Shown in pieces: positions 3,381-48,949 of a stretch of 64,000 nt of DNA (the stretch's first letter is position 1; every line of letters starts with the position of its first letter). A program made the translations under genes and the position numbers. A model generated the notes under the pieces. It was not told the origin of the DNA and ran no database searches. It saw only the letters and a list, made by a program, of their open reading frames with translations. The stretch comes from Bacillota bacterium. GTDB taxonomy: Bacteria; Bacillota; Sulfobacillia; Fermentithermobacillales; Fermentithermobacillaceae. The stretch covers positions 43,811 to 107,810 of the forward strand of contig DUVI01000053.1 in the NCBI GenBank assembly GCA_012841065.1, in the 5' to 3' direction.

Positions 3381-3794
3381 TTACCTCCTCCCTTCAGTGA
3401 TAGCTCTTCTCAAGAGCGAAAACTCTGCGGTCAATTGGCGGGATACTGCAGTGTAGTAGTAAGCGTTGGCAGATATTTCTGCCATCTCTTTGTCGATATC
3501 TACGCTGTTTCCATCCGGGGTAACGCTGGTCGTGTCAAGAGTAACGGCAATGGTGTCACCATGCCTCCCACGAACATGCATCGGATTTGTGACAGTAAGC
3601 TGTATGCGCGGCCTAAGCGCATCGTACAAATAATCCTCAAAATTGACTCTTGCCGCTTTGTAGCCCGGTGTGTCACTGTTGGCTATGTTGTTAGCCATAA
3701 CCTCATGCCTCAGCCATGCGCCCGTAAGCGCTCTCTGCATGATACTGGTTATGCTCACATCAACCCCCCCTAAGAAGCCAAAAACCTTCCGCAA
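3381..3794 (-). CDS. flgB: Flagellar basal-body rod protein FlgB (likely true start GTG at 3758)
   Basis: Rod-protein N-terminal motif (NNIANSDTPGYKA). The longest ORF begins with TTG at 3794 inside a terminator hairpin and has no RBS. An in-frame GTG at 3758 is preceded by GGGGGGG (3764-3770), which is a better start. Confidence 0.85.
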   Translation of the reverse strand: MRKVFGFLGGVDVSITSIMQRALTGAWLRHEVMANNIANSDTPGYKAARVNFEDYLYDALRPRIQLTVTNPMHVRGRHGDTIAVTLDTTSVTPDGNSVDIDKEMAEISANAYYYTAVSRQLTAEFSLLRRAITEGRR

Positions 3795-3806
3795 GACCGG
3801 AAGGTT
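3776..3806 (-). terminator. Intrinsic terminator (expression platform of the c-di-GMP riboswitch) in the flgB 5' leader
   Basis: Minus strand reads AACCTTCCG-GTCTTG-CGGAAGGTT followed by TTTTT, a perfect 9-bp stem. It lies immediately upstream of the flgB RBS. Confidence 0.7.
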
Positions 3807-3829
3807 TGAGAATCAGTAGCAATAACCTA

Positions 3830-3935
3830 CCGCCCTTCGGTAGCCCGGCTATCGTAGCGGGAAGGACTGTCTTCTCGCCTTAGACCCGTGGCTTTGCGTC
3901 TCTGCCTTTAGGCAGATTTGCCTTTATCGGTTTGC
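3830..3935 (-). ncRNA. Cyclic-di-GMP-I (GEMM) riboswitch aptamer upstream of flgB
   Basis: Minus strand reads CCGATAAAGGCAAATCTGCC-TAAA-GGCAGAGACGCAAAGCCACGGGTCTAAGGCGAGAAGACAGTCCTTCCCGCTACGATAGCCGGGCTACCGAAGG. The GGCAAA...GACGCAAAGCC-CGGG-CU and GAUAGCC-GGG-CUACC blocks match the conserved GEMM-I core. An alternative hairpin (CTACCG-AAGGG-CGGTAG) shares the CUACC strand with the aptamer. Confidence 0.75.
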
Positions 3936-4026
3936 GGTAACCAACATTTTCCTTATTCGGTTGTCTAGGTTTCAGTTTCGACACAAGAGGACAAATTCCT
4001 TCTTCTTGTATCGAAAAACCTCGAAA

Positions 4027-4827: not shown

Positions 4828-6231
4828 CTACAAGATATACCTGGTCAAATCTGTGTCGCTTACCAGGCCTGTTAATCTATCCAGCACGTACTTCCTGTCA
4901 ACTACTAATTCCCCTTGCATACCGTCAGGCGCCTCAAACAAGACTTGCTCGAGCAGTTTTTCCATAACCGTGTGAAGCCGTCTGGCGCCGATGTTCTCGC
5001 TCTTTTGATTCACTGTAAATGCCATCTTTGCTATTTCCATTATGCCGTCAGGCGTGAATTCAAGGTGAACTCCGTCTGTTTCCAGCAGGGCTTTATACTG
5101 ACGGGTGAGTGAGTTTTCAGGCTCAGTGAGGATCCTCACAAAATCTTCTTCTTCGAGGGCATCCAGCTCAACTCTGATGGGAAAACGGCCCTGCAACTCG
5201 GGAATCAGGTCTGATGGCTTGCTCACATGAAATGCGCCTGCGCCTATGAACAATATGTGGTCTGTTCTTACAGGACCGTACTTGGTTATCACGGTTGTTC
5301 CTTCGACTATTGGCAAGAGGTCTCTTTGGACGCCTTCCCGGGAAACGTCGGGGCCTGCACCGGTTTCCCTTCCGGCAATCTTGTCTAGTTCGTCAAGGAA
5401 CACGATTCCCAGCTTCTCACACCGTCTTATGGCTTCTACGACGATGGAATCCTGGTCAACGAGTTTGCCGGCTTCTTCCTGTGTGAGAATTCTCCGGGCT
5501 TCCCTTACCGGAACTCTCCGTTTTCTCGTCCGCTTGGGCAGAAGTCCCCCGAAAATATCTTGCATGTTGATTTCCATTTCCTGCATGCCCATACCGTCGA
5601 AGAACTCTACCCTGGGGGTAGTGGTATCTTCCACTTCAATTTCAATCTCCCGGTCCTCAAGCTCTCCGTTCCTAAGCTGCTGGCGGATAAGTTGTCTTCT
5701 GGCACGGGCCTGGCGGACCTTCTCACTGAAGTCGTCTTCTTCGTCGTGCTCCTGTTCTTGCTGCACAGGGTTGAACAATACTTCAAAAGGATTAGGTGTT
5801 GTTTTCCGCCTCTTCGGCACCGGGCAAAGTATGTCAACAAGCCGATCTTCCGCCAGGCTCTCAGCCCTGTCTTGAACGTTCCGGAGGTTTTCCTTCCTGA
5901 CCATACTCACAGCATTTTCGACAAGATCCCGTACTATCGACTCAACATCCCGGCCAACGTAGCCCACTTCGGTGAACTTTGAAGCTTCCACTTTCACAAA
6001 GGGGGCATTTACGAGTTTGGCCAATCTCCTGCAAATCTCCGTCTTTCCTACCCCAGTAGGGCCAATCATCAGGATATTCTTGGGAATAATGTCGTCCTGC
6101 AAATCACCTGTAACCTTCTGCCGTCTCAACCTGTTCCTGAGAGCTATGGCAACGGCACGCTTGGCCTGGTTCTGTCCCACTATATATTTATCCAGTTCAG
6201 CTACTATCTCCCGAGGAGTCAAGTCTCCCAT
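4828..6231 (-). CDS. hslU: ATP-dependent protease ATPase subunit HslU
   Basis: 467 aa with an AAA+ Walker A ([10 protein letters not shown]) and an I-domain insertion. Family signature throughout. Confidence 0.95.
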
Positions 6232-6265: not shown

Positions 6266-6823
6266 TCATCCCAATTCTTCGACGATAATATTGTCGTTAG
6301 TATATATGCACAAAGATGCCGCTATCTTCAAAGATTCCCTGGCAATGGAAGCGGCATCCATTTCTGTGAATTTCATAAGCGCCCTGGCAGCTGCTGTAGC
6401 ATATGCCCCTCCTGAACCAATCGCCAGTACAGGCTCGTCAGGTTCAATTACTTCGCCGGTACCCGAAACCAACAGCAAATGGTTCTTGTCCATGCAAAGC
6501 AGCATTGCCTTTAGTTGTCTCAACACCCTGTCAGTGCGCCACTCTTTAGCAAGATTAACTGTAGATTTTAGCAGATCGCCTCTTGTTTCTTCAAGATGGC
6601 CTTCCAGCTTGTCAAACAGCGTAAGCGCATCTCCCACGGATCCTGCAAACCCCGCGATAACGGAATTCTTGTAGAGTTTTCTTACCTTCCTAGCTGTTGA
6701 TTTAAGGATGGTATGGTTTGTCTCAAGAGTGACCTGCCCATCCCCGGCCATTGCCGCTTTGCCACGTACCCTCACGGCAAGCACTGTGGTGCTCAGGATA
6801 CGAGGCTCATGTTCAACTGTCAT
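6266..6823 (-). CDS. hslV: ATP-dependent protease subunit HslV (CodW-type with short N-terminal extension)
   Basis: Ntn-hydrolase motif TTVLAVR...GDGQVT...GSGG. The longest ORF starts at 6853. An internal ATG at 6823, preceded by AAAGGGG, is preferred and overlaps the xerC stop by 11 nt. Confidence 0.9.
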
Positions 6824-7832
6824 GTTTTCCGCCCCTTTCAAAATCGCTTCCATGTATGTCAGGCTGCCCTTCCGGTTGATTCACCTTGGCCCTCGGGTGG
6901 GCACTCTTGTACACTTGCCTCAATCGCTCAGGCATGACATGAGTGTATATCTGGGTGGTCTTGATGCTTGCATGCCCGAGCATCTCCTGAACCGAACGCA
7001 GGTCAGCACCGCCCGACAGCAGGTGGGTGGCAAAAGAATGCCTCAAGGTATGGGGCGAAAGCCCCTCAGGGTCAATTCCGGCACGCAAAATGTACTTGTG
7101 AAGTATCCTCCTAATGGATCTGTCAGACAGCCTTTTGCCAAATCGGTTGATGAAAAGAGGTTTGCTCATTACAGCCAATTCCTGGCTTTGTTTTTCGGTC
7201 TTGCTCTCAAGTAAAGGCCGCCCCTCATCCAGGTAACGTCCAATGGCATCCAAGGCCATTGAACCCAGGGGAACGAACCTTTCCTTGCCGCCCTTGCCTG
7301 TGACCTGCACAAACCCTAGGGAGTAGTCTACGTCGCCTATATTGAGTCCCGCCAATTCGCTAATACGCAGGCCTGAACTGTAAAGCAATTCTACAATCGC
7401 ACGATCACGCTTCCCCAGAGGAGTAGCGGTGTCGATTACCGACAGGATGCGGGCAATTTCGTCCTGAGAAAACACCTTGGGTAAGTAGGTGTGGGTCTTC
7501 CTGGAAGAAACGCGCTTGGCAGGATTCTCATCAATCACGCCCCTGCGCGTCAGAAAACGGCAGAAGCTTCTTACGGCAGACAGTTTCCGGGAAATCGTGG
7601 CGCCTTTGTAATCCTGCCTGCCCAAGTATATAGCGAATCTGCGTATACATTCCGGCGTGATATCTGCTGAAGTCAGATCTTCAACCCGCTTGCCACAGAC
7701 CTTTTCGGTGAGAAAACAAAAAAACTGGCCTAGGTCCTGTGAGTAAGCCTGAACGGTATTATGACTTTGGGTCTTCGATACACTTATTTCTACAAGAAAA
7801 TCTTCCTTCAGTTGAAGTAACGAATGAGTCAT
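6813..7832 (-). CDS. xerC: Tyrosine recombinase XerC (CodV-type)
   Basis: 339 aa with an N-terminal SAM-like domain and the catalytic R..HxxR..Y residues ([24 protein letters not shown]). It is the first gene of a codV-hslV-hslU-codY arrangement. Confidence 0.9.
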
Positions 7833-17084: not shown

Positions 17085-18317
17085 GTGAACAGGCCCGGAG
17101 CTGCCCACAACAACCGCTGGATATCAACTCGACTGACAGGCACTGAACGGAAGTGGTTGATCGCATACATGGGCTTAGTGGCAGGAGTGGGGCTGAGTTT
17201 CTCGGCTTTGGTGCTCATAGACTACAACCCGCCGGACCCATACACCACAGCAATTTTCGCAATACTGGGCATCATAAGCTTCAACCAACCCATAAAACTC
17301 GCGCCTAAAGTCGAGCTACATGCAACATGGCCCATTCTGTTTGCCGCCCTTTATTGTTACGGCCTCCCCCTGGCCATCCTTACAGGGGTGCCGGCTATGC
17401 TTTCTCAAAGCATTTTCCTGCAGAAGGCTCTGCTTACCTCCTTATTTAACGGCGGGCAGTTGGCGATCAGCCTTGGCGTGGCAAACATCACCGCTCAACT
17501 TGTGAGGAGTATTGCGCCTCCCACGATAACCTGTGAAATAATCGCCCTGGTGCTGGGTATGAGCGTCTTCGACCTGTGCAATATTATCCTGGTAAGCATA
17601 GCTGTGTGTAAGGAACAGCAAGTAAGCTGGAGGGCTTGCTTTGAACAGATGACCTTTGTGAACAGACGTTGCCTTCTCCCCCTTATGTACCTCCTCTCCC
17701 TGACAAGCGCGCTGCTGTGCTCCTTCATTGGGAACGTTGGGCTTTTGCTGACTTTTGCCCATGTGCTTGTAGTATCACATCTAATGCGGTTCCAGCGGGA
17801 ACTAGATTTGAGAACCGAGGAATCCCGCACCGATCCTTTGACTAAGGCGCTAAACTACAGATACCTGGAAGACTGGTTGAACTTCGAGTTCCCTAAATTG
17901 GCGGCGGAGAACACCCCGTGTAGCTTCGTGTTCATCGACTTAGACGGTCTTAAGCGGATTAACGATACCTTCGGGCATGAAGCCGGAGATTCAGTATTGG
18001 TTGACGTAACAAAAGCCCTGTCCGCCACTACCAGGCCGCAAGATGTGATCATCCGGTACGGCGGCGACGAATTCGTGATAATCTGTCCGGGCACTGACAT
18101 AGAAACTGCAGAAGCAATAGGCAAGAGCCTTATTGCCGTTTGCAGCACACCTGTATACTATAAAGACTCCTCTTTTAACATCGGCTTAAGCGTCGGCATA
18201 GCATCTTACCCTGAAGATTCAACAGTCGGCAGAGACCTTATCCGGCTGGCTGACTGGGCGATGTACCATGCCAAGAAGTGCGGCGGCAACATTGTGTGCA
18301 AGGCCAGTGACCTGTAA
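17085..18317 (+). CDS. Membrane-anchored diguanylate cyclase (polytopic N-terminal domain + GGDEF)
   Basis: 410 aa with about 6 predicted TM helices followed by a GGDEF domain carrying an intact active site (RYGGDEFVI) and DPLT..NRR. GTG start with RBS GGAGG. Confidence 0.9.
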   Translation: MNRPGAAHNNRWISTRLTGTERKWLIAYMGLVAGVGLSFSALVLIDYNPPDPYTTAIFAILGIISFNQPIKLAPKVELHATWPILFAALYCYGLPLAILTGVPAMLSQSIFLQKALLTSLFNGGQLAISLGVANITAQLVRSIAPPTITCEIIALVLGMSVFDLCNIILVSIAVCKEQQVSWRACFEQMTFVNRRCLLPLMYLLSLTSALLCSFIGNVGLLLTFAHVLVVSHLMRFQRELDLRTEESRTDPLTKALNYRYLEDWLNFEFPKLAAENTPCSFVFIDLDGLKRINDTFGHEAGDSVLVDVTKALSATTRPQDVIIRYGGDEFVIICPGTDIETAEAIGKSLIAVCSTPVYYKDSSFNIGLSVGIASYPEDSTVGRDLIRLADWAMYHAKKCGGNIVCKASDL

Positions 18318-48644: not shown

Positions 48645-48804
48645 TAAACAAAAAGCCTCTCTGACAAGAAGAGAGGCATGGTGTAAACCCCTTATCTGTC
48701 AGAACCAAGTCCTCTTACAGGTTCTGTTGGAGTTGGCACCTTCGCACTAAGTGCGGGTTGCCGCAGGGTCATTGGGCCAATTCCCTCACCTGCTCTGGAT
48801 AAGG
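48645..48804 (-). ncRNA. SAM-I (S-box) riboswitch with intrinsic terminator, leader of metNIQ
   Basis: Minus strand reads CCTTATCCAGAGCAGGTGAGGGAATTGGCCCAATGACCCTGCGGCAACC...AAGGTGCCAACTCCAACAG...GACAGATAAGG. This matches the S-box core (CUUAUCAAGAG.GG.GGAGGGA.UGGCCC.AUGA..CCC.GCAACC ... GGUGC.AA.UCC ... GAUAAG). It is followed by GCCTCTC-TTCTTGTCA-GAGAGGC and TTTTTGTTT. A TTGACA -35 lies at 48860-48865. Confidence 0.9.
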
Positions 48805-48949
48805 ACCAGATAATATTCAGTTGTTATATGAGTTAATACTTAGCACAACAAATGCGCACTGTCAACACCGGTTCCCGGTTTCTCCCGGTGACGAGCTCCC
48901 CTGGCCTCATTGGCCTCATCAAACACCCGCGGGGAAACGGCAGCCCAGG

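Follow-up and report, generated by a model that had tools for sequence, protein, structure and literature searches.

A class I cyclic di-GMP aptamer and an intrinsic terminator between codY and flgB, a probable OFF switch of flagellar genes in Candidatus Fermentithermobacillia

The window studied here is the whole 64-kb stretch of contig DUVI01000053.1, a bacterial genome assembly of the uncultured thermophilic class DTU015, Candidatus (Ca.) Fermentithermobacillia, whose members are predicted to be motile and spore-forming and whose first complete genome appeared in 2023. On the minus strand of the window, the spacer between the genes codY and flgB was found to contain a full-length class I cyclic di-GMP (c-di-GMP) aptamer, also called GEMM-I, and an intrinsic terminator located directly before the ribosome-binding site (RBS) of flgB. 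These features allow us to assume, with a probability of about 0.72, that the flgB-flgC-fliE-fliF operon has in its leader a c-di-GMP riboswitch that turns transcription off. The chance that the switch works in the OFF direction is put at about three in four. The original prediction, made from the same DNA, had proposed that the flagellar operon is gated by c-di-GMP, with repression at high c-di-GMP, and the presence of the aptamer and of a compatible terminator in the flgB leader supports this as probable.

The aptamer and the terminator of the flgB leader

The whole window was scanned with 4227 Rfam families at gathering thresholds, and two matches were obtained, namely a distant S-adenosylmethionine (SAM) riboswitch and the full-length c-di-GMP-I aptamer. 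At the latter, RF01051 outscored the variant models of its clan. A match to this family on the minus strand of the spacer had been anticipated together with a set of GEMM-I hallmarks; the match extends over the full model, and each hallmark was found at the place and in the order described. The following features were identified (all on the minus strand).

3932-3836, minus: c-di-GMP-I (GEMM-I) aptamer, RF01051 over model positions 1-87 of 87, 83.4 bits (gathering score 35), E = 6e-15
3922-3917, minus: GGCAAA, from the sequence
3916-3901, minus: hairpin UCUGCC-UAAA-GGCAGA, from the sequence
3900-3890, minus: GACGCAAAGCC, from the sequence
3853-3839, minus: GAUAGCCGGGCUACC, from the sequence
3921-3920/3897-3896 and 3916-3911/3906-3901, loop UAAA at 3910-3907, minus: helix P2 of the aptamer model
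3895-3893, minus: AAA linker joining the two aptamer hairpins
3893-3883 with 3853-3842, plus a distal stem, minus: helix P3 of the aptamer model
3807-3798 (AAACCUUCCG), loop GUCUUG at 3797-3792, 3791-3782 (CGGAAGGUUU) and U5 at 3784-3780, minus: intrinsic terminator, -14.7 kcal/mol

The first aptamer hairpin is composed of a 2-bp and a 6-bp stem, and the second one is long and contains an 11-nt-type receptor. The identity of the element as a class I c-di-GMP aptamer can be assigned with very high confidence. The positions that contact the ligand in the Vc2 aptamer were mapped through the RF01051 alignment using the numbering anchors of PMC11705072. Their equivalents are G3922 (G20), A3895 (A47) and C3840 (C92), and equivalents of the Vc2 tertiary pairs A48-U90 and C44-G83 are present as well. 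The three contact positions are conserved in the close relatives L001, L002 and L081 (listed below). From this signature, c-di-GMP is predicted to be the ligand. In addition, the window encodes an intact GGDEF diguanylate cyclase (131 bits; 410 aa; 17085-18317, plus strand) with a MASE9 membrane sensor domain; this predicted enzyme shows that c-di-GMP is made by the organism.

Recognition of another cyclic dinucleotide, e.g., 3',3'-cyclic GMP-AMP (cGAMP), or of a variant ligand was considered and appears highly improbable. The family GEMM-I does include sensors of cGAMP whose first annotation was for c-di-GMP, and the aptamer of the Symbiobacterium homolog L008 (4610-4700) has A at the G20 position (AAAAGCAAA), a change linked to GEMM-I variants that sense cGAMP or are promiscuous. 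However, the window and its three close relatives carry the c-di-GMP signature, the clan variant models scored below RF01051, and the GGDEF cyclase is encoded nearby.

According to the original description of GEMM, the loop of the first hairpin is nearly always a tetraloop of the GNRA type (Weinberg et al. 2007). In the window, this loop is UAAA, as in L081 and L002; it is AAAA in L001, and GAAA was found only in L008 and L031. This is a deviation and not an exclusion, because the model score is far above the threshold. The receptor-like sequence is UCUAAG...UACGA in the window, with UAUGA in the relatives (window positions 3851-3855, minus strand).

The stem of the terminator consists of 9-10 perfect pairs, the outer A-U pairs of which take up part of the T tract. 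It begins 29 nt past the aptamer and ends approximately 10 nt before the RBS, so that the predicted perfect hairpin with a T5 tract in front of the flgB RBS (G7) and the GTG codon is indeed present. A simple consensus terminator scan did not list the 3807-3782 hairpin and listed the CUACCG/CGGUAG hairpin instead, probably because some of the T run is absorbed into the maximal stem; the energy of the terminator hairpin was therefore evaluated directly. The terminator and the aptamer share no nucleotide and coexist in the minimum free energy (MFE) fold. Control of transcription termination at the flgB leader is predicted with high confidence.

To evaluate conservation, relatives were collected via CodY from one genome per species and from metagenomes, which gave 160 loci. 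The aptamer was searched for in them using a covariance model made from the aptamers and, on a subset of loci, Rfam. It was found in only five of the 160 loci, always between codY and flgB; the metagenome scan yielded a single full-length close homolog (L081). The five loci are as follows (MAG, metagenome-assembled genome).

L081: CodY 93% identical; aptamer RF01051, 85.9 bits
L001, Ca. Fermentithermobacillaceae MAG: CodY 88% identical; RF01051, 84.6 bits
L002: CodY 83% identical; RF01051, 83.5 bits
L008, Symbiobacterium MAG (DYEP01000053.1): CodY 59% identical; RF01051, 75.4 bits
L031, another Bacillota MAG (JASKKP010000002.1): CodY 55% identical; RF03167, 72.3 bits

The L031 aptamer (4960-5044) was examined as a possible member of the RF03167 "c-di-GMP-I-GGC" variant, which scored best there, but the A at the A47 position is kept and the defining change is absent, and this assignment was rejected.

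For covariation, the window, L001, L002, L008 and L031 were used, i.e., five copies out of six, L081 having been added later. All 20 modelled aptamer pairs form in 5/5 copies, and seven of them are changed on both sides in a compensatory manner, a number that none of 500 shuffles reached. When the partner columns were slid as a control, pairing fell to 23-43% of cells. The same order of a bipartite upstream motif, aptamer, hairpin with U tract, RBS and flgB was observed in 6/6 loci, and the layout spans three Bacillota lineages in the five related loci. The terminator is identical in the four close leaders (window, L001, L002 and L081), which are 85% identical. At the terminator position, L008 and L031 have other hairpin-plus-U-tract sequences, which argues that structure rather than sequence is under selection. 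An identical CodY was found on 18 contigs from several metagenomes, and the species is carried by digester and food metagenome samples. Six strain-level copies of the leader have the same riboswitch and terminator and differ by a single-nucleotide polymorphism at 3999, outside the riboswitch (G3999A in the strain variant L161, within the conserved upstream motif); these copies gave no covariation information.

Competing folds and the direction of the switch

The strands that could form the expression platform are listed below (all on the minus strand).

3940-3934, minus: UUACCGC, 5' strand of the candidate distal P1, pairing with GCGGUAG at 3833-3827; MFE partner at prefix length 125
C3929-G3838 and G3928-C3839, minus: predicted proximal P1, abutting the ligand pocket
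3833-3827, minus: switching strand GCGGUAG, with the alternative partners 3940-3934 (distal P1), 3843-3838 (hairpin A) and 3819-3814 (hairpin B)
3843-3838 with 3832-3827, minus: hairpin A, CUACCG/CGGUAG, from the sequence
3820-3814, minus: GCUACUG, 3' strand of hairpin B, pairing with CGGUAG(G) at 3832-3826
3841-3833, minus: aptamer 3' tail ACCGAAGGG, candidate upstream antiterminator strand, which holds the C92 equivalent and the 3' strand of the proximal P1
3804-3796, minus: 5' half of the terminator, downstream antiterminator strand according to prefix folds

The long-range P1 helix (UUACCGC/GCGGUAG together with CG/CG) contributes -9.3 kcal/mol to the aptamer. The position of its proximal part coincides with the P1 annotated in the RF03167 model and with the G14-C93 pair of Vc2. 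The distal part is pairable in all four close leaders, with an A-U pair replaced by G.U in L002. Hairpin B belongs to the MFE fold from prefix 120 on; across the four leaders, six of its pairs are invariant and the closing pair is G.G, C-G, U-A or U.G. Prefix folding at the length where the 5' strand of the terminator is out and the 3' strand is not showed that the tail ACCG-AAGG (3841-3833) pairs with CCUU-CCGGU (3804-3796) around hairpin B. The probability that the aptamer tail is paired with the terminator 5' strand at this decision length is 0.65, and the outer pair A3841-U3796 becomes G-C in L002. A 5' hairpin of the MFE fold, GUUGGUU/AACCGAU, is not conserved in L001 or L002 and was dropped.

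At the decision length, the energy is -31.1 kcal/mol for the aptamer alone, about -34.7 kcal/mol for the aptamer with hairpin A, -40.4 kcal/mol for the aptamer with P1 and -44.3 kcal/mol for the aptamer with hairpin B and the antiterminator. The contribution of the latter pair is -13.2 kcal/mol, and that of hairpin A is only about -3.5 kcal/mol. An alternative hairpin re-using the CUACC strand had been put forward in the original prediction; it is present as hairpin A, but since it adds so little, it is probably a transient fold and not the main competitor. The P1 and antiterminator folds are mutually exclusive and lie about 4 kcal/mol apart, a calculated gap that the energy of ligand binding can readily cover. 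As both folds use the same strands, ligand binding should free the terminator.

All candidate platform helices are pairable in the four close leaders, and in each of them the 5' strand of the terminator pairs upstream with P1 or junction nucleotides (P = 0.66-0.84). The tail partner is weaker in L001 (GAAAG), where the 5' flank AAACCG..AAGG pairs with the terminator strand instead (P = 0.83). The clearest antiterminator/terminator pair of the set was found in L008, where the aptamer 3' strand GGGUUGCCGG makes a strong helix with CCUGGUGACC and the terminator forms only when the aptamer is held.

The closest known system is Cd1 (Cdi-1-3) in the flgB leader of Clostridioides difficile, in which a class I aptamer causes termination at high c-di-GMP, as demonstrated by in vitro transcription, northern blots, reporters and RNA-seq. 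In Cd1, the aptamer and the terminator coexist and compete with an antiterminator made of the aptamer 3' strand and the terminator 5' strand. In the ON-type GEMMs, the terminator overlaps the last hairpin (Weinberg et al. 2007). The terminator of the window, unlike that of the ON-type elements, lies outside the aptamer and is compatible with it, as in Cd1, which speaks for the OFF direction.

The proposed mechanism is as follows. Transcription would either begin near 3977-4000, at a promoter there, or enter by read-through from codY, after which the class I aptamer would be made. At high c-di-GMP, the ligand would be held by G3922, A3895 and C3840, and P1 would close (C3929-G3838, G3928-C3839 and 3940-3934 with 3833-3827), sequestering the aptamer tail and the GCGGUAG strand. 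The hairpin 3807-3782 with U5 would then be free to form, and transcription would end about 20 nt before the flgB start. At low c-di-GMP, GCGGUAG would pair with CUACUG in hairpin B, and the tail ACCG-AAGG would pair with CCUU-CCGGU in the 5' half of the terminator. This antiterminator would delay the terminator long enough for the polymerase to pass, and the basal-body genes would be made.

The opposite direction, in which c-di-GMP binding blocks termination and the basal-body genes are induced at high c-di-GMP, is considered unlikely. Class I aptamers can work both ways, and Vc1 and Cdi1_1 respond positively; moreover, the unliganded full leader already has the terminator in its equilibrium fold, and no clean antiterminator was found in L031. 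Nevertheless, a held aptamer cannot block a terminator stem with which it has no nucleotide in common, and in the ON-type GEMMs these two parts overlap. All the alternative partners of the terminator 5' strand belong to P1 or to the junction and would be sequestered by the ligand, and L008 clearly points to OFF. Induction of flagella by c-di-GMP would also oppose both Cd1 and the general motile-to-sessile logic.

A number of results weigh against an OFF switch of the proposed design, and the evidence for the platform is modest. The UAAA loop together with the one receptor deviation could lower the ligand affinity. The antiterminator in this clade has only eight pairs with an interior loop, and a shuffled-tail control (10-nt tail) did not separate it from chance (occupancy 0.59; shuffled tails, mean 0.33 and maximum 0.88), so no statistical support is claimed for this helix. 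The covariation in the platform consists of single events among the four close leaders with their high identity. L031 lacks a clean antiterminator, and both of its constrained folds keep the terminator. The fold energy of the whole leader is unremarkable (z = -1.35). Finally, at full length, the terminator fold (-53 to -56 kcal/mol) is ahead by about 9-11 kcal/mol even without the ligand; read-through of the unliganded RNA must therefore have a kinetic basis, which is what has been published for Cd1.

The upstream motif and read-through from codY

A bipartite motif is located upstream of the aptamer.

4000-3977, minus: AGGAATTT-N10-TGTCGAA, with key positions invariant in five divergent leaders

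Its consensus, GGAnTTY-N9-11-TGyCGAW, was found upstream of flgB in four lineages (positions 4805 in L001, 4814 in L002, 4562 in L008, 4867 in L031, 3305 in L081 and 4925 in L036). The motif is unique in the window, where 0 occurrences are expected, and it occurs seven times in 1.03 Mb of fetched loci, namely in the five riboswitch loci, once in L036 and once elsewhere. In the Hydrogenibacillus locus L036, it stands between the codY terminator and flgB, and there is no riboswitch. Most likely, the flagellar operon is transcribed from this motif as a candidate promoter. The -10 part can be read as a putative sigma-D/sigma-28-like box, with the best fit in L031 (GCCGAAAA). On the minus strand, a consensus promoter scan of the spacer revealed no sigma-70 promoter. 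Readings of the motif as a sigma-54 promoter or a CodY box did not fit by eye. A small open reading frame (ORF) within the motif was also rejected, since inspection of the alignment revealed that its frame and length differ from one relative to the next. With the motif as the promoter, the terminated leader would be about 190 nt long instead of the approximately 150 nt given in the original prediction.

The promoter-like motif is spanned by a 13-nt inverted repeat, TTTCGATACAAGA...TCTTGTGTCGAAA (4016-4004 and 3988-3976, minus strand; 15-nt spacer), and its conservation in the relatives is limited to the cores TCGATA and GTCGAA. This repeat could be an operator or two promoter boxes.

The terminator scan revealed no terminator-like site in the interval between codY and the aptamer (3944-4026, minus strand), and no intrinsic terminator was seen after codY in the Fermentithermobacillia leaders. 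A clear one follows codY in L008 (4490-4540, Symbiobacterium), L031 (4775-4835, DJKA57) and L036 (4800-4832, Hydrogenibacillus). In the clade of the window, transcripts reading through from codY would consequently enter the riboswitch, and the riboswitch terminator may also end codY transcripts.

This arrangement raises the question of whether the hairpin 3807-3780 is mainly a constitutive terminator of the hslVU-codY unit, with an aptamer that exerts little or no control over it and is either decaying or active in a different way, e.g., through RNA stability. The lack of another terminator after codY in this clade, as opposed to L008, L031 and L036, is in line with such a role, as are the weak antiterminator, the thermodynamic dominance of the terminator and the non-GNRA loop, which may weaken the aptamer. 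Such a terminator, however, would silence the operon behind a conserved promoter-like motif, as it stands 10 nt before the flgB RBS. In addition, lineages whose CodY is only 55-59% identical have retained the aptamer (75-86 bits) with compensatory changes, the sole polymorphism among the six strain-level leaders lies outside the riboswitch, and the near-balanced energies of P1 and the antiterminator look designed. A purely constitutive role is therefore judged improbable, and the c-di-GMP-responsive OFF switch remains the preferred reading.

A more speculative extension of the OFF switch, which we regard as doubtful, is that the riboswitch terminator would be the only one between the hslVU-codY unit and the flagellar operon, and c-di-GMP would gate the transcripts of the CodY operon as well as those from the sigma-D-like promoter. 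Such an element would rely on an atypical tertiary contact, with a UAAA/AAAA loop replacing the near-universal GNRA loop and an 11-nt-type receptor kept, and its terminator 5' strand could be captured by either side of P1. If this were true, the transcription unit of a nutritional regulator would itself be coupled to motility via one RNA gate.

Flanking genes, known systems and significance

The minus strand of the window contains topA, xerC, hslV, hslU, codY (4803-4027), the non-coding spacer, flgB, flgC, fliE and fliF, and the flagellar operon extends past the end of the window. Profile matches confirmed codY and flgB-flgC-fliE-fliF as the flanks that had been named.

4803-4027, minus: codY, upstream of the aptamer; NF003170 CodY, 354 bits
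3770-3764, minus: ribosome-binding site GGGGGGG, from the sequence, 5 nt upstream of the GTG at 3758
3758-3381, minus: flgB with the corrected GTG start, 125 aa; TIGR01396 FlgB, 87 bits
3377-2919, minus: flgC, NCBIfam equivalog match
2845-2552, minus: fliE, NCBIfam equivalog match
2521-989, minus: fliF, NCBIfam equivalog match

The aptamer (3932-3836) and flgB are encoded on the same strand, and flgC, fliE and fliF, which follow flgB, are the downstream genes that the switch would control. The original prediction described these genes as the late part of the flagellar operon; the genes are there, but flgB-fliF are early basal-body genes. The spacer contains no ORF of at least 50 aa, and only mechanical ORFs of 20-49 aa overlap it, which bears out the earlier statement that it is free of ORFs at this length.

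The longest flgB ORF (137 aa) starts at TTG 3794, and this start had been suspected to be wrong. The codon is situated within the terminator loop, and an in-frame GTG is present at 3758 downstream of the G7 RBS (GGGGGGG, GGGGGGGG or AGGAG in the relatives). The match of the FlgB hidden Markov model starts at residue 17 of the 137-aa ORF (profile position 6), and L001 and L002 have ATG in the alignment column of GTG 3758. Public gene calls for the identical flgB (window 3381-3794, minus strand; L161-L165) are discordant, giving 105, 125 or 137 aa, and only the 125-aa call from GTG 3758 matches the homologs and the RBS. For all these reasons, the predicted TTG 3794 start is wrong and GTG 3758 fits the homologs.

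Two further observations concern other parts of the window. The longest hslV ORF (6266-6853, minus strand) shares 41 nt with the end of xerC (6813-7832), and matches to the HslV models begin only at residues 19-22; the true hslV start is probably downstream of the listed ATG. The second Rfam match is a full-length SAM-I riboswitch (48689-48805, minus strand; RF00162, 90.7 bits, gathering score 44.4).

The likeness to Cd1 that the original prediction had drawn holds for the aptamer class, for flgB as the first regulated gene at the head of the early flagellar operon, and for the kind of platform, here predicted, in which an aptamer-compatible terminator opposes an antiterminator borrowing the aptamer 3' strand. 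It does not extend to the leader as a whole. The Cd1 leader is 496 nt long, its terminated product of ~160 nt stops a long way from flgB, and there is an invertible flagellar switch downstream, whereas the terminator of the window ends ~10 nt before the RBS. P1 is reportedly absent in Cd1, and the leader of the window can form a P1 of 2 + 7 bp (-9.3 kcal/mol). The element of the window directly follows codY in a Bacillus-like gene order, with no codY terminator, its P2 loop is UAAA and not GNRA, and its function is a predicted one. The main text of PMC9262584 does not contain the Cd1 sequence for a direct alignment.

The Vc2 riboswitch of the Vibrio cholerae tfoY leader, the structure of which has been solved, shares with the aptamer of the window the three-helix fold, the G20, A47, C92, A48-U90 and C44-G83 equivalents, the 11-nt-type receptor of P3 and the top pairs of P1 after C92. 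It is also an OFF switch, as the element of the window would be. Unlike the latter, Vc2 has a GAAA loop and another gene context, and descriptions of it speak of repressed translation and an effect on RNA stability rather than of a simple terminator switch.

The association of GEMM with flgB has been known since 2007, when flgB, flgC, fliE and fliF were reported among the gene families following GEMM in more than one genome (Weinberg et al. 2007). That catalogue predates the Ca. Fermentithermobacillia lineage and does not describe the expression platform. The present element is a further example in a poorly studied lineage and no new mechanism; the understanding of how such switches work is unchanged. 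It corrects the flgB start where public gene callers disagree and offers an object for tests that is compact (about 190 nt) and in which the choice between P1 and the antiterminator is well defined. As a probable OFF switch, it extends the RNA-level control of flagella by c-di-GMP from C. difficile to Ca. Fermentithermobacillia (DTU015), Symbiobacterium-like and other Bacillota MAGs.

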